DNA of 7,800 nt from a virus (taxonomy: Duplodnaviria; Heunggongvirae; Uroviricota; Caudoviricetes): IMG/VR virus record IMGVR_UViG_2671180405_000013, one strand, 5' to 3'. The position numbers were made by a program, and so were the translations under genes. How positions within the stretch are numbered: position 1 is the first letter of the stretch; every line of letters begins with the position of its first letter. The notes under the pieces were generated by a model. The model ran no database searches, was not told where the DNA came from, and worked only from the letters and a program-made list of their open reading frames with translations. This document shows, in pieces, positions 1,560-7,800 of this stretch.

Positions 1560-1599
1560 TATTGAAGAATTAATTACGCGTCGTTATTATGCGGCTCCC

Positions 1600-1675
1600 G
1601 GCCCTTTAGCTCAGTGGTGAGAGCGAGCGACTCATAATCGCCAGGTCGCTGGTTCAAATCCAGCAAGGGCCACCA
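1600..1675 (+). tRNA. ileZ: tRNA with anticodon CAU (Ile2/Met type), ileZ-like
   Basis: Hand-folded cloverleaf: acceptor ggccctt/aagggcc, U8, D stem gctc/gagc, anticodon loop ctCATaa, T-loop ttcaaat, discriminator A, encoded CCA. Confidence 0.85.
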
Positions 1676-1682
1676 TCACATA

Positions 1683-1759
1683 CCGCCATTAGCTCATCAG
1701 GAAAGAGCGCCAGCCTTCGAAGCTGGCTGCGCGGGGTTCAAGTCCCCGATGGCGGTCCA
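1683..1759 (+). tRNA. argN: tRNA-Arg, anticodon UCG, argN-like
   Basis: Acceptor ccgccat/atggcgg, D stem gctc/gagc, anticodon stem ccagc/gctgg with loop ctTCGaa, T stem cgggg/ccccg with loop ttcaagt, encoded CCA. Confidence 0.8.
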
Positions 1760-1772
1760 TTATCTGCATCAT

Positions 1773-1849
1773 GCGTTGTTAGCTCAGCCGGACAGAGCAA
1801 TTGCCTTCTAAGCAATCGGTCACTGGTTCGAATCCAGTACAACGCGCCA
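1773..1849 (+). tRNA. argO: tRNA-Arg, anticodon UCU, argO-like
   Basis: Acceptor gcgttgt/acaacgc, anticodon stem attgc/gcaat with loop ctTCTaa, T-loop ttcgaat, encoded CCA. Confidence 0.85.
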
Positions 1850-1863
1850 CACTTATTTTCCCT

Positions 1864-1889
1864 GGCTCGCTTTTGCGGGCCTTTTTTTT
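1864..1889 (+). terminator. Intrinsic terminator downstream of the tRNA cluster
   Basis: Stem ggctcgc/gcgggcc (one U-G pair), loop tttt, followed by 8 T. Confidence 0.6.
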
Positions 1890-1892
1890 AAA

Positions 1893-2152
1893 TGTCTCAC
1901 AATTCAGACGGTTGACAGTTGTCTGTTTTGCGGGGAGTTTGTTAAAAGAAACTGGCATGGTGAATCCCCCTGTGCGGAGGGGCAATCAGCGAGTAGGTAT
2001 ATGGGATAATCGCGGATTCAGGTGCTGGTACTGAATTCACCGGGAGGCACCCGGCATCATGCAATGGCACATAGCGCCACTCTCCAGCCCTCTCCGGAGG
2101 GGCTTTTCTGTGCCGGATACATCACAGTTTCTGGAACCTTAGGTACTACAGT
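1893..2152 (+). repeat. Repeat family X, copy A (terminator-capped structured element; candidate sRNA unit)
   Basis: Positions 1917-2152 are identical to 4215-4450. Contains the TCACAATTCAG motif, a TTGACA box, closing helix catggtg (1956-1962) / catcatg (2055-2061), internal hairpins, and a terminator hairpin at 2087-2108 followed by TTTTCT. Confidence 0.7.
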
Positions 2153-2158
2153 NCTAGG

Positions 2159-2186
2159 TTGATTTTTCCGGAATCTGTGGTAAATT
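2159..2186 (+). promoter_or_regulatory. PR'-like late promoter (sigma70, extended -10)
   Basis: -35 TTGATT (2159-2164), 16-bp spacer, TGg + TAAATT (2178-2186), the same -10 hexamer as phage lambda PR'. A -10-like TAACTAT lies in the initial transcribed region and terminator copy 2 sits about 45 nt downstream, matching the lambda PR' to tR' short-transcript layout. Confidence 0.5.
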
Positions 2187-2234
2187 CGTCATAACTATGG
2201 GCGTTTTATGCCTGACGTTAGAAGAGTTTCTACA

Positions 2235-2257
2235 ACCCGCCGCCGAGCGGGTTTTTT
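2235..2257 (+). terminator. Intrinsic terminator, tR'-like (copy 2)
   Basis: Same hairpin and T-tract as at 10-32. Confidence 0.55.
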
Positions 2258-2296
2258 ATTGCGGAATTAATTACGGACCGTTATTATTCTGCTCCC

Positions 2297-2372
2297 GGCC
2301 CTTTAGCTCAGTGGTGAGAGCGAGCGACTCATAATCGCCAGGTCGCTGGTTCAAATCCAGCAAGGGCCACCA
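2297..2372 (+). tRNA. ileZ: tRNA with anticodon CAU (Ile2/Met type), second copy
   Basis: Same sequence as 1600-1675 with the same cloverleaf and encoded CCA. Confidence 0.85.
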
Positions 2373-2379
2373 TCACAAA

Positions 2380-2459
2380 CCGCCATTAGCTTATCAGGAA
2401 GAGCAGACGACATGATAACAGGGTTGTTGGTGCGGGGGCGGGTCCCCGATGGCGGTCCA
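2380..2459 (+). pseudogene. Degenerate tRNA (argN remnant)
   Basis: Acceptor stem ccgccat/atggcgg and the D-arm are retained, but the anticodon arm and T-arm are replaced by sequence that does not form a cloverleaf and has no T-loop. Confidence 0.5.
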
Positions 2460-2472
2460 TTATCGGTATTCA

Positions 2473-2549
2473 GCGTTGTTAGCTCAGCCGGACAGAGCAA
2501 TTGCCTTCTAAGCAATCGGTCACTGGTTCGAATCCAGTACAGCGCGCCA
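2473..2549 (+). tRNA. argO: tRNA-Arg, anticodon UCU, second copy
   Basis: Matches 1773-1849 except one acceptor-stem change (a to g at 2542) that leaves a U-G pair; anticodon loop ctTCTaa. Confidence 0.85.
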
Positions 2550-2659
2550 TATTCATTCTTCCAGATTCCTTCCGGCAGAGCCTTATACTGAAATATACCT
2601 GGCTCAGGATATTGTTGAAAATATTTTATGTTTGTCAAAAATAAAAGTTCTGTTAAGTA

Positions 2660-3013
2660 TTGATTGAGTGTTTGTTATACGGTCTAATGGTTTTTTCAGC
2701 ATTAAATATTTATCATTCATATGGTGTGGGTAGAGTGAATATTGATGAGGCGTCGGGGTGTTTCATCCTTAGGCAGCGTATTGATATAGTCAATGCAGCA
2801 CGAGCAAAGGCCTTCAGCCGTTTGACAGTTTTGTTCTGTACTCCTGATCGTCTTTCGGGAAGAGACGTTATTATTCTGAATAGTGATGCTATACAGAGGG
2901 TTTGCGATGAGTTCATGGTTGCTAATTCAGAATTATTTGCTCTTGTTCAGGAGTACAACAGAATAGCCAGGACCTGTGGTATGGATGAACTTCGGATTAC
3001 TCATCTGGGGTAG
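2660..3013 (+). CDS. Hypothetical protein, start uncertain (TTG 2660, ATG 2687 or GTG 2735)
   Basis: 354-nt ORF downstream of the second tRNA cluster. No convincing Shine-Dalgarno before any candidate start and no family recognised from the translation. Confidence 0.35.
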   Translation: MIECLLYGLMVFSALNIYHSYGVGRVNIDEASGCFILRQRIDIVNAARAKAFSRLTVLFCTPDRLSGRDVIILNSDAIQRVCDEFMVANSELFALVQEYNRIARTCGMDELRITHLG

Positions 3014-3204
3014 ATACATATCTGGATTATCACCTGTTACGGTAAAAAGTGATTGCTTACTGTTTTTGTGAATGGCATTGCAGCAGCCGGATAATGTCAG
3101 TGCTGGCTGACGGTGTGCTGGTGGCGGGTGTGGTGGTTGTTGCTTTCCCGTTGCTGAAAAAGAAAACGCCAGACTGTTAGCCGGGTATCAGTTAGCGGGA
3201 GAAA

Positions 3205-3428
3205 TTTTTAAATACTTCACAATTCAGGCGGTTGACTGTTGTCTGGTTTGCGGGGAGTTTGTTAAAAGAAACTGGCATGGTGAATCCCCCTGTGCGGAGG
3301 GGCAATCAGCGAGTAGGTATATGGGATAATCGCGGATTCAGGTGCTGGTACTGAATTCACCGGGAGGCACCCGGCACCATGCAATGGCACATAGCGCCAC
3401 TCTCCAGCCCCTCTCCGGAGGGGCTGTT
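3205..3428 (+). repeat. Repeat family X, copy B
   Basis: Same element as copy A with point differences: TTGACT box, closing helix caccatg (perfect pairing), terminator stem gcccctc/gaggggc 7 bp with loop tccg. Confidence 0.7.
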
Positions 3429-3457
3429 TATATTGATTTTGTCAGATGTGAGTAAAC

Positions 3458-3491
3458 TCCTTATGGACTTTGTTGTTTTAGTCCATAAGGA
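3458..3491. repeat. Perfect 11-bp inverted repeat at the left edge of the AT-rich island
   Basis: tccttatggac (3458-3468), 12-nt loop, gtccataagga (3481-3491). It overlaps the last codons of the minus-strand ORF and has no T-tract on either side. Confidence 0.6.
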
Positions 3492-3796
3492 CATATTTGC
3501 AGAGTGCAACGGTTATTAAAGCATTCATTCAATACGTTATCTGTATTTGTAGGGCATTCCTGGCTATTTTTGATTGAATTCCAGAATGTTTTATTGAATG
3601 GTACTACGTTGTAAATGGTTACAGGTAGCACTTTGTTATTGAGCATGATGCCTGTGTGAGTCAGTGTAAATATACTTTCAGGAGGTAAGAAAGCATCCGA
3701 TTGATACCAGATTATTAATTTTATTTTACTCCATATGACTGAAAAAGATATTCCGCATGATGGCTGGATAACTGTATCAATCACAATCCACTTCAT
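3461..3796 (-). CDS. Hypothetical Cys/Trp/Asn-rich protein, 111 aa, island cargo
   Basis: ATG at 3796-3794 preceded by AAGGA with a 6-nt spacer. A 111-codon open frame in very AT-rich DNA is unlikely by chance. Candidate promoter on the minus strand: -10 TATACT (plus 3837-3842), -35 TTTACA (plus 3858-3863), 15-bp spacer. Confidence 0.5.
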
Positions 3797-4056
3797 TTAG
3801 TTTCCTTGTTTATGCCTTGCTGGTGATGTTCTGAAAAGTATAAATGATATTTTTGAATGTAAACCATAGAGCAGAATTATTTTTCTGATGTTGTTTATTG
3901 TTTATTTAAATGCAGGGTGGTTTATATCTCGTCTTGTAGTTTATCCATGCATATCTGCTTGATAATCAGGTTTTTATTTAAGGTATGGTTTTGTGTTTTT
4001 TCTGTATTACATGTCAGGTATTTTAAAGAATTATTTTTCAGATGGTGGAAAGAACC

Positions 4057-4083
4057 ATGGCATTTAAACACTATGATGTTGTC
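4057..4083 (+). CDS. 5' fragment of a second nanS-p-like gene, truncated by the N gap
   Basis: atggcatttaaacactatgatgttgtc encodes MAFKHYDVV, identical in protein to the start of the 5123 ORF, with two synonymous differences and a different AT-rich upstream region. Confidence 0.5.
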
Positions 4084-4214
4084 NNNNNNNNNNNNNNNNN
4101 NNNNNNNNNNNNNNNNNNNNNNNNNNNNNNNNNNNNNNNNNNNNNNNNNNNNNNNNNNNNNNNNNNNNNNNNNNNNNNNNNNNNNNNNNNNNNNNNNNNN
4201 NNNNNNNNNNNNNN
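4084..4214. other. Assembly gap (131 N)
   Basis: Uninterrupted run of n. Confidence 1.
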
Positions 4215-4450
4215 AGTTGTCTGTTTTGCGGGGAGTTTGTTAAAAGAAACTGGCATGGTGAATCCCCCTGTGCGGAGGGGCAATCAGCGAGTAGGTATAT
4301 GGGATAATCGCGGATTCAGGTGCTGGTACTGAATTCACCGGGAGGCACCCGGCATCATGCAATGGCACATAGCGCCACTCTCCAGCCCTCTCCGGAGGGG
4401 CTTTTCTGTGCCGGATACATCACAGTTTCTGGAACCTTAGGTACTACAGT
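4215..4450 (+). repeat. Repeat family X, copy C (5' end lost in the gap)
   Basis: Identical to 1917-2152. Confidence 0.75.
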
Positions 4451-4596
4451 ATCAGTCAGGGTGCTATATTTTCAGATGTGATGAAAGCCTGTCAGCAGGC
4501 AGGGCGTATCGGAAATGACCCAGTAGAGAAAACGTTGACTCAGATACCGGTGCTGAGTTACCGGGAAACCGGCATCACATGACCGCTATCCTTCCA

Positions 4597-4623
4597 GGCC
4601 CATCCGCTCCGGTGGGCCTTTTT
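4597..4623 (+). terminator. Intrinsic terminator closing a partial X-like unit (4535-4623)
   Basis: Stem ggcccatc/gg(t)gggcc of 8 bp including one U-G pair, loop cgctcc, then TTTTT. The preceding ggtgctgagttaccgggaaaccggcatca aligns with the hairpin region of repeat X. Confidence 0.55.
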
Positions 4624-4660
4624 ACTGCAGAAAACAGGTTCCCCGTTAAATGCTATGTTG

Positions 4661-4895
4661 CTCACAATTCAGTAAGTTGACAGTTGCCTGTCAGACTGGG
4701 CATTTGTTAAAAAAATTTCGCATGGTGAATCCCCCTGAGCGGAGGGGCGACTGGTGACGGTATAATCTCTGATTATCAAAACGAGAATGACGCGGGTTTA
4801 GTGGCACCGGGCTGAACTCACCGGGAGGCACCCGGCACCATGTGCATGATGATACAGATACGCGGCTTTAGCCCCTCTCCGGAGGGGTTTTCTTG
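4661..4895 (+). repeat. Repeat family X, copy D (divergent), ending about 230 nt upstream of nanS-p
   Basis: Retains TCACAATTCAG, the TTGACA box, closing helix catggtg (4721-4727) / caccatg, hairpin ccgggaggcacccgg and terminator cccctc/gagggg + TTTTCTT (4871-4895); sequence between the helices has diverged. Confidence 0.65.
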
Positions 4896-4900
4896 TGGGC

Positions 4901-4929
4901 AAAAAAAGCCCGCGCTGGGAGACGCGGGC
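4901..4929 (-). terminator. Intrinsic terminator readable on the minus strand
   Basis: On the minus strand, stem gcccgcg/cgcgggc (7 bp) with loop tctcccag is followed by TTTTTTT (plus-strand A7 at 4901-4907). Confidence 0.4.
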
Positions 4930-5122
4930 GGCAAGGAATAAACAATAAAACGTGAAGTAATATTTCAGCTGGCGAATAATACCCCATAGTAATCACTCTG
5001 CGCAACTGCGCGGTCTTTTTCGAATTGCGGGCTGTCGTCTCTCTTCTGCCATTGTCCTGTAACTTCCGGACTTCAGCCCGCTCCTTATTTTACTCACAAT
5101 ATTATCCCGGCCGGGAGGATTC

Positions 5123-6976
5123 ATGGCATTTAAACACTATGACGTGGTCAGGGCGGCATCGCCGTCAGACCTTGCGAAACGACTGACACAAAAACTGAAG
5201 GAGGGCTGGCAGCCGTTTGGTAGTCCGGTGGCCATAACCCCTTATACCCTGATGCAGGCGATTGCAGCAGAAGGTGATGTGGTCGTCAGTGGTGCAACTG
5301 AGCCGGAGTGGTACTACGTCATCGTACTGGCCGGGCAATCCAATGCCATGGCTTACGGTGAAGGTCTTCCGCTTCCGGATTCATACGATGCGCCCCATCC
5401 GCGCATTAAGCAACTGGCCCGTCGTAACACAGTGACTCCCGGTGGTGAAGTATGCGTATTTAACGACATCATTCCTGCTGACCATTGTCTGCATGATGTT
5501 CAGGATATGAGTACGATTAACCATCCCCGGGCTGACCTGAGCAAAGGGCAGTACGGCTGTGTCGGACAGGGCTTACATATTGCCAAAAAACTGCTTCCGT
5601 ATATCCCTAATAATGCGGGGATCCTGCTGGTACCATGCTGTTGTGGTGGTTCGGCATTCACCCAGGGCACGGAGGGGACATTCAGCGAGTCCACGGGGGC
5701 CAGTCAGGATTCGGCTCGCTGGGGAGTGGGTAAGCCGTTATATCAGGATCTGCTTTTCCGCACGAAGGCAGCATTGCAGAAAAACCCGAAAAACGTTTTG
5801 CTGGCGATATGCTGGATGCAGGGGGAATTCGATATGACGAATGCCAGTTACGCCCAGCAGCCAGCAGCATTTCTTGCAATGGTACAGCAGTTCCGTGCTG
5901 ACCTTGCCGGGCTGGCGGCGCAGTGTCACGGTGGAAGTCCGGCATCAGTCCCCTGGATTTGTGGCGACACGACATACGCGTGGAAACAAGAACACGGTAC
6001 GCAATATGAAGTGGTATATGGTGCATATAAAGGTAAAGAATCCCAGCAGATTTATTTTGTTCCCTTTATGACCGATGGTAGCGGAGTTAATACACCGACA
6101 AACAACCCGTCAGAAGATCCTGATATTGCCGGGTCTGGTTATTACGGTTCGGCATCCCGAACGAACAAAAACTGGGTATCATCAAATCGCCCGACGCATT
6201 TCAGCTCATGGGCGCGTCGTGGCATTATTCCCGATCGTATGGCAACTGCTATTCTGAACGTAGCCGGTCGCACCTTAGCCTTCATTAGTGGTAAGGCACC
6301 GGAAATCAAACCCTCGCCCGGCGGCGACACGCCATCGGGGCCGTCTGAAGATGCATCCATACGCACAATCTCCCTGTTGCCGACAGCCGGAGACGCTGCT
6401 GCGCAGGGCTGGAGCATTAAGAATGGCGGAGTTCAGTTGTCAGATGGTGTATTTAAGATCACCAAGCAGAGCAATAAAGCCTGGTCCCTGACGCGCCCGG
6501 TGGATGACGCAGTCTCCCTGCTGACACGGGGTGGCAGACTGAGCTGTAAGTTTCGACTGTCAGGCGCACTGACCAACAACCAGTTCGGTCTGGGAATTTA
6601 TCTGTATACCGATGTAGCGTTACCTGACGTCGTGGCGATGACCGGGACTGGTAACCCGTTCCTGATGTCGTTCTTCACCCAGACCACAGACGGCAAACTG
6701 AATCTGATGCATCACAAGAAAGCAGGAAACACAAAGTTGGGCGAGTTCGGGAATTACAGTAACGACTGGCTGACGCTGGAGCTGGTGTTCACCGCCGGCA
6801 GTGCCACGGTTACTCCGAAACTGAATGGAGTGGCTGGCCCGGCATTCCAGGTCATAAAAGACAGTCTGACACTGGGGCTGAATGCGCTGACGCTGACGGA
6901 TATTACCAAAAATGCAGCGTATGGCGTTGAGATAGAAAGTCTGGTGCTGGAGATAAATGCACCGGCATCATCATAA
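5123..6976 (+). CDS. nanS: Prophage sialate O-acetylesterase, NanS-p type (N-terminal DUF1737-like segment plus SGNH/SASA esterase domain)
   Basis: 617-aa ORF with strong Shine-Dalgarno GGGAGGA 5 nt upstream of the ATG. N-terminus MAFKHYDVV and the GQSN esterase motif (VLAGQSNAMAYGEG) match the 9-O-acetyl-sialate esterases found downstream of stx in EHEC prophages. Confidence 0.8.
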   Translation: MAFKHYDVVRAASPSDLAKRLTQKLKEGWQPFGSPVAITPYTLMQAIAAEGDVVVSGATEPEWYYVIVLAGQSNAMAYGEGLPLPDSYDAPHPRIKQLARRNTVTPGGEVCVFNDIIPADHCLHDVQDMSTINHPRADLSKGQYGCVGQGLHIAKKLLPYIPNNAGILLVPCCCGGSAFTQGTEGTFSESTGASQDSARWGVGKPLYQDLLFRTKAALQKNPKNVLLAICWMQGEFDMTNASYAQQPAAFLAMVQQFRADLAGLAAQCHGGSPASVPWICGDTTYAWKQEHGTQYEVVYGAYKGKESQQIYFVPFMTDGSGVNTPTNNPSEDPDIAGSGYYGSASRTNKNWVSSNRPTHFSSWARRGIIPDRMATAILNVAGRTLAFISGKAPEIKPSPGGDTPSGPSEDASIRTISLLPTAGDAAAQGWSIKNGGVQLSDGVFKITKQSNKAWSLTRPVDDAVSLLTRGGRLSCKFRLSGALTNNQFGLGIYLYTDVALPDVVAMTGTGNPFLMSFFTQTTDGKLNLMHHKKAGNTKLGEFGNYSNDWLTLELVFTAGSATVTPKLNGVAGPAFQVIKDSLTLGLNALTLTDITKNAAYGVEIESLVLEINAPASS

Positions 6977-7061
6977 AAAGTGAGCCAGCCAAATGGAAGG
7001 TATCGTTAAACTCACCGGTAGTGTCAGTGGGTCGTCTGAGATGCCTGCATGAGTTATCAGA

Positions 7062-7091
7062 GCCATCAGTACTTAACTGGTGGCTTTTTTT
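7062..7091 (+). terminator. Intrinsic terminator between nanS-p and the holin
   Basis: Stem gccatcag/ctggtggc (8 bp, one U-G pair), loop tacttaa, followed by TTTTTTT. Confidence 0.6.
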
Positions 7092-7126
7092 ATTGTTGTC
7101 AGCTTCCGGATAACGGGAGACGGGGT

Positions 7127-7342
7127 ATGTACCAGATGGAAAAAATCACAACAGGTGTGTCATACACCACGTCAGCGGTGGGAACGGGCTACTGGTTCCT
7201 GCAGTTGCTGGACAGGGTTTCCCCGTCTCAGTGGGCGGCAATAGGCGTGCTGGGGAGTCTGCTGTTTGGGCTGCTGACATATCTGACTAACCTGTATTTC
7301 AAAATCAGAGAGGACCGTCGTAAGGCTGCACGGGGAGAGTAA
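7127..7342 (+). CDS. S: Class II holin, S21-type (pinholin), dual-start motif
   Basis: 71-aa product [26 protein letters not shown]...[20 protein letters not shown] closely matches the phage 21 S holin as remembered. Met1 (7127) and Met4 (7136) form the antiholin/holin dual start; GGGAGACGGGG precedes it. The track ORF from 7049 is overextended and runs through the terminator at 7062-7091. Confidence 0.85.
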
Positions 7343-7346
7343 TTCA

Positions 7347-7661
7347 ATGACTCAAAACTATGAACTGATTGTGAAAGGGATCCGCAATTTTGAGAATAAA
7401 GTTACGGTAACTTTAGCGTTACGGGACAAAAAACGCTTTGACGGTGAAATTTTTGACCTGGACATCTCGCTGGACCGTGTTGAAGGTGCCGCGCTGGAGT
7501 TTTATGAGGCAGCAGCCAGAAGGAGCATCAGACAGGTCTTCTTGGATGTTGCTGCCGGGTTATGTGAAGGGGACGAGCTGTTGCCAGAAACGCGCCCCTG
7601 TTCAGAGGCGCGGTATACCATAAAAATTAACAGTTCTGATAACTCGATTACGGGTTGTTAG
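7347..7661 (+). CDS. Hypothetical acidic protein, 104 aa, between holin and endolysin
   Basis: ATG at 7347 lies 4 nt after the holin stop with GGGGAGAG upstream, suggesting translational coupling. No family recognised. Confidence 0.55.
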   Translation: MTQNYELIVKGIRNFENKVTVTLALRDKKRFDGEIFDLDISLDRVEGAALEFYEAAARRSIRQVFLDVAAGLCEGDELLPETRPCSEARYTIKINSSDNSITGC

Positions 7662-7716
7662 CTTTTTGCAGTTGGCTTTCCAGTATCTTTCATTGGTAGC
7701 ATCCTGATAAATATCC

Positions 7717-7800
7717 ATGAGCGCAAAAATCAAATACGGCCTGTCAGCTGCTGTTCTGGCGCTGATTGCAAAATGGCATCTGAATCGATCGCAGTTTGGC
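7717..7800 (+). CDS. Probable endolysin, N-terminal fragment (SAR-type signal-anchor), partial at window end
   Basis: MSAKIKYGLSAAVLALIA resembles the Gly/Ala-rich signal-anchor start of SAR endolysins in lambdoid prophages, and the position after the holin fits. There is no clear Shine-Dalgarno and only 28 codons are visible. Confidence 0.4.
   Translation, partial: MSAKIKYGLSAAVLALIAKWHLNRSQFG

Follow-up and report, generated by a model that had tools for sequence, protein, structure and literature searches.

The tandem arrangement of late-region modules in a lambda-like prophage sequence of the Escherichia coli type is very probably an assembly artefact, in which the late region of a second prophage was scaffolded into that of the first at a single N. 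The sequence analysed here, referred to as the window, is a 7,800-nucleotide stretch of a Caudoviricetes record in IMG/VR (IMGVR_UViG_2671180405_000013) and represents a late region read from left to right throughout. The initial annotation proposed that two modules, each with a terminator and tRNA genes, either form a real tandem late-promoter arrangement or result from a mis-join of two related prophages. The second proposal is strongly supported: the junction is absent elsewhere, both of its flanks continue in other ways in related sequences and sister assemblies join the same pieces differently. The first is unsupported, with the junction present in no collection searched. We infer the probable true layout of this strain from sister assemblies together with closed genomes of other strains.

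The window can be read as three contigs separated by a single N at position 2153 and a 131-N scaffold gap at 4084-4214, with all features on the plus strand unless stated. Contig 1 begins with the tR' intrinsic terminator of prophage A (module 1, 1-35), identified by a terminator scan as a stem at 9-28 followed by a T-run. Downstream are ORF65, a 65 amino acid frame from the ORF list (153-350), and an N6/N4 DNA methyltransferase gene (501-1559; PF01555, E = 7.9e-42). Together they form a cassette (153-1559) located between tR' and the tRNA genes of module 1 that is not present in module 2. The module 1 tRNA trio consists of tRNA(CAT), tRNA-Arg(TCG) and tRNA-Arg(TCT) (1600-1849; ARAGORN and Rfam tRNA). 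The contig ends with the first copy of an element initially named repeat X (1896-2152), which is an STnc100 sRNA gene with its flanks. Contig 2 starts with the last codons of a Q antiterminator ORF (2154-2194), whose frame and TAA stop codon (2192-2194) were read from the sequence. A PR'-type late promoter of prophage B is predicted at 2159-2186 based on its sequence and its position after Q. It is followed by the tR' terminator of prophage B (2226-2260; terminator scan and repeat match), a tRNA(CAT) (2297-2372; ARAGORN), a degenerate relic of an Arg(TCG) tRNA recognized by alignment (ca. 2380-2460) and a tRNA-Arg(TCT) (2473-2549; ARAGORN). The remainder of this prophage B arm (2660-4083) contains ORF117 (2660-3013), a DUF3927 gene (3049-3180), STnc100 copy 2 (3246-3435; Rfam), a minus-strand IraM-like gene (3461-3796) and, cut by the gap after its first 9 codons, a nanS-p/DUF1737 esterase gene (4057-4083). 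Contig 3 opens with a second copy of 1917-2152 (4215-4450) that includes STnc100 copy 3 (4224-4413). The continuation of prophage A (4451-7800) then carries a weak STnc100-like unit (4452-4625), STnc100 copy 4 (4691-4900), a complete nanS-p esterase gene (5123-6976), a P21-type holin gene (7127-7342) and a DUF1327 gene (7347-7661).

As initially noticed, the N at 2153 is located exactly at the junction, and similarity to all other sequence breaks there on both sides. On the left, the identity between 1917-2152 and 4215-4450 (100% over 236 nt) ends exactly at 2152. In copy 3 and in all related loci, the equivalent base is followed by ATCAGTCAGG and not by module 2. On the right, the part that begins at 2154 or 2156 is in every case preceded by the 3' end of Q. 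Judging from the pattern in related scaffolds, the single N likely represents a scaffold join and not an ambiguous base within continuous sequence. A 261-nt junction query spanning the N (2040-2300) was searched against 5,426 closed E. coli genomes. It was matched in part in 2,731 of them, and the intact junction was found in none of the 5,426. Coverage of at least 80% was reached in only 8 genomes, each time by two pieces spread over 561-752 bp. The two of these eight that were inspected carry the pieces in the opposite order, PR' and tRNA first and STnc100 downstream. Among the matches listed, 21 of 22 start at window position 2156. Searches of species-representative genomes, metagenome contigs and IMG/VR returned zero hits for the exact junction pattern and for a pattern allowing 0-30 unknown bases; the window's own record was also unmatched. 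Positive controls were recovered in IMG/VR, with the left-flank continuation GGTACTACAGT|ATCAGTCAGG present in 67 viral contigs and the right flank in its Q context in 6 contigs. Broad megablast searches (1560-3100 and the whole window) gave high coverage values that pool separate pieces. The possibility that the places found in this way contain two modules was ruled out, local BLAST showing a single module there. Overall, no independent assembly searched contains the junction, each flank has a well-attested other continuation, an N is placed exactly at the break and identical sequence is joined differently in sister assemblies.

Deleting positions 2153-4450 from the window yields a merged sequence that is contiguous at 99.9-100% in several N-free contigs. 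It matches L008 (6088-11186) over 5,099 nt with 4 mismatches and no gaps and L039 at 99.9% with one gap. The independent NCBI draft contig L084 and a stretch of L081 (489-2902) are 100% identical to it. L071 shows one mismatch in 1-2152 and none in 4215-7800, with the two matches overlapping by 236 nt. All five possess one copy of the 236-nt repeat and run from 2152 straight into 4451. An 803-nt query over the merged junction was found as one piece at ca. 99% identity in at least 15 closed genomes and was covered to at least 80% in 344. The closed genome L012 encodes Q, ORF65, the methyltransferase, three tRNAs, the esterase and the holin in this order, and the merged sequence aligns with it as a single colinear block. 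Arm B, the insert between the single N and the 131-N gap, has its own continuous context. A sequence composed of Q, 2154-4083 and a full SASA esterase gene is present as one piece in the best 12 closed genomes and is covered to at least 80% in 792. L007 likewise carries arm B as one uninterrupted stretch, preceded by Q and followed by a complete SASA esterase gene. The esterase gene that naturally follows 4083 is 1.85 kb long and the 131-N gap is too short to hold it. Closed genomes carry late-region modules in multiple distinct locations (a median of 2 and a maximum of 8 places per genome), which fits a two-prophage model. The downstream nanS-p genes of two prophages are ca. 99% identical (L006).

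Sister NCBI drafts, found through a look-up of the methyltransferase protein, contain pieces 100% identical to the window that are differently joined, in each case at Ns. L080 shows a 2075|N|2224 join, again with a single N, and has lost PR'. In L081, arm A is unbroken through 4712 and is followed by an N and the right part of arm B. Arm B precedes arm A in L008, where nanS-p is cut after ca. 14 codons, and in L011 the join cuts STnc100 in the middle. The IMG/VR scaffolds L006, L008, L009 and L011 all carry single Ns at abrupt sequence changes. At least two copies of tRNA(CAT) are present in 4 of 87 fetched loci, all of them with N joins, and in 0 of 76 N-free loci (Fisher p = 1.5e-4). The sister draft L078 (GCA_001257435.1), with yet another layout, contains two 273 amino acid Q genes only 38 nt apart (2748-3569 and 3607-4428), with an N-run inside the first (3494-3504), as well as two RusA genes. 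Its layout looks like serialized repeat arms as in the window.

In the arrangement that we propose, the genome would carry at least two lambda-like prophages whose late regions are nearly identical upstream (Q, PR' and tR') and downstream (nanS-p and lysis genes) but unlike each other in the middle. Arm A, represented by 1-2152 and 4451 onward, would consist of tR', ORF65, the DNA methyltransferase, three tRNAs and STnc100 units. Arm B (2154-4083) would consist of PR' preceded by Q, tR', tRNA-Ile, a degenerate tRNA, tRNA-Arg, ORF117, DUF3927, STnc100, the IraM-like gene and nanS-p. A short-read assembler would break its contigs where shared and differing sequence meet, and contig 2 would for this reason extend from the last Q codons to the first nanS-p codons. 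A scaffolder, whose exact behavior we reconstruct here from its product, would then insert the contig of arm B between the two contigs of arm A, which overlap, string all of them in one line and mark the joins by a single N and by 131 Ns. The exact copy of 1917-2152 at 4215-4450 would be present because contigs 1 and 3 overlap, and the gap would be far too short for a 1.85-kb gene because the two arms were serialized. Join positions would differ between sister assemblies because alternative arms are strung together by the scaffolder.

One observation runs counter to an artefact. Two independent scaffolds, the window and L080, place arm B between the left and right parts of arm A, and true linkage, instead of one repeat-driven error made twice, might account for this shared order. 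The contigs might be true neighbors, with partial prophages nested or in tandem and the N standing for an unsequenced stretch containing at least Q. Consistent with this, contig 2 starts in the last Q codons, so that Q-like sequence must precede it, scaffolders place contigs by read-pair links and L080 has the same order. We nevertheless consider such missing sequence very unlikely. A full 1.85-kb esterase gene is needed at the right end of contig 2, but what follows there is 131 Ns and then the interior of an sRNA gene. Contigs 1 and 3 share an exact 236-nt overlap and form one uninterrupted sequence in sister contigs, and the sister scaffolds L008, L011 and L081 show different orders.

Even less probable is a genuine tandem, in which illegitimate recombination placed a fragment of a second late region, beginning 5 bases upstream of PR', just after STnc100 copy 1 and a base was miscalled as N. 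A single prophage would in that case possess two consecutive PR'-tR'-tRNA modules. The window sequence is colinear on one strand, and both the window and L080 put arm B after the first STnc100 of arm A. However, neither the 5,426 closed genomes nor three other collections contain the junction, and the insert is flanked by an exact 236-nt duplication with an N-run at its other end. In addition, 2152 and 4451 are contiguous at 100% in N-free contigs, and the 2075|2224 breakpoint of L080 in otherwise 100%-identical sequence is impossible from a single inherited recombination. A true ambiguous base within a real recombinant was rejected as an explanation of the N, given that L080 breaks the same sequence at 2075|2224. 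It is very unlikely that a truncated second PR'-tR'-tRNA module truly lies inside the late operon of the other prophage in this strain; if it did, a single Q would act on two successive PR'/tR' units, and the middle of the operon would give rise to another constitutive short RNA. Finally, a culture in which the same prophage was present both in a form carrying the methyltransferase cassette and in one lacking it, the two alleles having been serialized by the assembler, would match the alternation of cassette variants at the same position in closed genomes but is barely conceivable. Closed genomes commonly carry several late regions at separate loci (median 2 places), making two prophages in one clone simpler, and the same pieces recur across several sister assemblies.

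With the window read as a scaffold of two prophages, modules 1 and 2 represent two variants of the same region. Module 1 contains three tRNA genes in the order CAT, Arg-TCG and Arg-TCT according to ARAGORN and Rfam. At the homologous locus of a closed genome, tRNA(CAT) is annotated as tRNA-Ile in RefSeq. Module 2 had been described as a second tRNA set with a degenerate middle gene, which is borne out by ARAGORN calls at 2297-2372 and 2473-2549 with nothing between them. It thus possesses only the first and third genes of the Ile-CAT/Arg-TCG/Arg-TCT series, and the middle tRNA is called neither by ARAGORN nor by Rfam at E <= 0.01. By alignment, the relic keeps both ends of the Arg(TCG) tRNA, namely the 5' acceptor and D arm and the 3' T arm and acceptor. 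Its interior, which begins where the D arm ends and reaches the 5' side of the T arm, has diverged beyond recognition. The closed genome of strain 2D carries the same degenerate form (L001, 6217-6300). The relic is predicted to fold into a cloverleaf-like structure that has an acceptor stem of 7 bp and an oversized 'anticodon' loop but lacks a T-loop motif; this fold is no better than that of shuffled sequence (z = -0.77).

The block upstream of the tRNA clusters is common to both modules, in line with the initial annotation (94% between 1560-1703 and 2257-2400), and the third tRNA with its flanks is 91% identical (1742-1862 vs 2442-2562). The description of module 2 as the module 1 region minus a ca. 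1.5-kb cassette of ORF65 and DNA methyltransferase also holds, with each variant occurring singly in closed genomes. The order Q, 65 amino acid ORF, methyltransferase and tRNAs is likewise found in closed genomes. The cassette appears as a clean insertion of ca. 1.5 kb directly after the T-run of tR' (30-45 and 1555-1575 compared with 2255-2275), and its downstream edge carries a similar short sequence (tattg.. gaattaattacg). In closed genomes it is paired with either tRNA set, the intact trio in L012 and the degenerate set in L004, L005 and L079.

The apparent lack of Q in module 2, by contrast, reflects the start of the contig and is not a property of the module. As written, the window has an STnc100 flank and the N immediately upstream of module 2, not Q. 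The same module 2 sequence directly follows Q in closed genomes, in IMG/VR contigs and in phage mEp460, and in these natural contexts Q is a 273 amino acid PF03589 protein (E = 2.2e-54). Contig 2, whose natural left flank is always the 3' end of Q, therefore starts inside the last Q codons, and the window lacks the remainder of Q because the contig starts at 2154. In closed genomes, the Q stop codon is located 3 bases before the start of the match and the sequence reads ...GGTAACTAGGTAACAA|GGTTGATTTTT. Six IMG/VR loci have Q upstream and read ...AAAAAGGTAA|CTAGGTTGATTTTTCC, with the window matched down to the CT at 2154-2155. The six IMG/VR contigs carry a Q allele with an 8-bp deletion (...AAAAAGGTAA|CTAGGTTGATTTTT). 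In this allele, which is represented by 2154-2194 in the window and found in L006-L011, the deletion (AACAAGGT) at the 3' end removes the usual stop codon. The ORF is ca. 12 codons longer and extends across the -35 and -10 elements of PR' to the TAA at 2192-2194.

The putative late control region of module 2 contains a repeated terminator and a promoter-like site. Recurrence of the terminator block was confirmed at 93% identity between 1-41 and 2226-2266, with the first 34 bases identical; the second copy corresponds to 2226-2259, and the coordinates first given for it (2225-2257) were one base too far left. The terminator scan detects the same stem-loop and T-run at 9-28 and 2234-2253. Given their length and identity, the internal repeats of the window cannot be due to chance. 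The lambda-like promoter site that had been pointed out is present, its -35 element (TTGATT, 2159-2164) being separated by 16 nt from an extended -10 element (TGgTAAATT, 2178-2186). A manual count gives matches at 8 of 12 consensus positions. The sigma-70 promoter scan, whose threshold is 9 of 12 positions, does not list 2159-2186 because of these 8 matches, and the promoter call therefore rests on position and conservation. The site directly follows Q in the loci inspected and is part of the junction query that 2,731 closed genomes match in part. In natural contexts it lies directly after a PF03589 Q gene, which agrees with its placement as PR'. In the N-free contig L071, the 3' end of Q and the PR' known from module 2 are found ahead of the module 1 tR', the only differences being one base and the 8-bp indel. 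Judging from this contig, the PR' and Q gene of module 1 are located just left of the window start.

The tR' stem of module 2 (2234-2253) contains 5 G-C pairs and is followed by a T-run, the features of an intrinsic terminator. When 2193-2260 is folded in silico, its terminal element is a GC-rich hairpin of 7 bp with a U-run. PR' and tR' of module 2 would yield a short RNA of ca. 66 nt, which matches no Rfam family at E <= 0.01. We infer promoter activity of 2159-2186 and Q dependence of module 2. By analogy to lambda and Stx phages, PR' would fire constitutively with transcription stopping at tR' ca. 66 nt downstream, and Q would allow RNA polymerase to pass tR' into the tRNAs, STnc100 sRNAs, nanS-p and lysis cassette. 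In lysogens, PR' has been reported to be constitutively active and terminated at tR', with Q allowing read-through (PMC7547250). Module 2 would accordingly represent the usual Q-dependent late control region of the second prophage, as in other lambda-like phages whose Q belongs to PF03589. Its elements are already known and it adds nothing to what is known of Q-dependent late regions.

The element initially called repeat X corresponds to STnc100 (RF02076), with a match at 1926-2115 scoring 123.6 bits compared to a gathering score of 47. Rfam detects four STnc100 matches above this threshold in the window (123.6-161 bits) and a fifth below it (30.1 bits). A short row of tandem STnc100 genes lies between the tRNA genes and nanS-p. 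Once the scaffold duplicate is removed, arm A contains two strong units and one weak unit (30 bits) in a row. A recent preprint ties STnc100 to PF03589 Q and esterase genes (10.64898/2026.05.13.724894, 2026). The start region of nanS-p is present twice (4057-4083 and 5123-5149, 84% over 37 nt). The first copy is the 9-codon stub, carried as a truncated DUF1737 gene in the gene calls of L080 and L081. The 111 amino acid protein encoded on the minus strand at 3461-3796 is named anti-adapter protein IraM in RefSeq and has a precomputed PF11183 PmrD hit; our Pfam scan returned nothing for it at E <= 0.001.

The main value of these results lies in quality control of short-read prophage scaffolds. 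Single Ns in prophage late regions can produce apparent tandem modules, truncated genes and duplicated sRNA genes. In the window, they lead to a spurious extra STnc100 copy and to a nanS-p stub that can be mis-annotated as a truncated DUF1737 gene. Counts of prophage tRNAs, sRNAs and late promoters based on such scaffolds would come out too high.

The region is similar to that of Stx2-converting phages, which it matches at ca. 88-89% and in which the tRNA genes are annotated as tRNA-Met and two tRNA-Arg. The module 1 trio has the same order downstream of tR' as the tRNA cluster of Stx and related lambdoid phages, named ileZ-argN-argO in the 933W literature. Unlike in that cluster, the middle tRNA of module 2 is a relic, and no stx genes follow. 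Another similar late region is that of Escherichia phage mEp460_ev081 (LR597641.1), which matches window positions 2156-2660 at 98.4% over 505 nt beginning 2 bases after the end of its Q gene. In contrast to the window, mEp460 has a single module, and its downstream region differs. As in lambdoid PR'-tR' regions, which give rise to the lambda 6S RNA and StxS of Stx phages, a promoter-like site, located after a PF03589 Q in natural contexts, is followed by a strong terminator, and the late genes of the window (tRNAs, esterase and holin) are located downstream of it. The predicted RNA of module 2 is only ca. 66 nt long, unlike in Stx phages, where PR' and tR' are reported to be 258 nt apart (PMC7547250). 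The window as written also differs from a lambdoid late control region in having no Q before module 2, which we attribute to the contig start. In its overall construction, the window resembles known scaffold joins in repeat-rich prophage regions: its Ns lie at abrupt changes in similarity, multi-copy sequence (3' end of Q and 5' end of nanS-p) borders its insert, an exact duplicate is found on both sides of the insert and sister assemblies vary.
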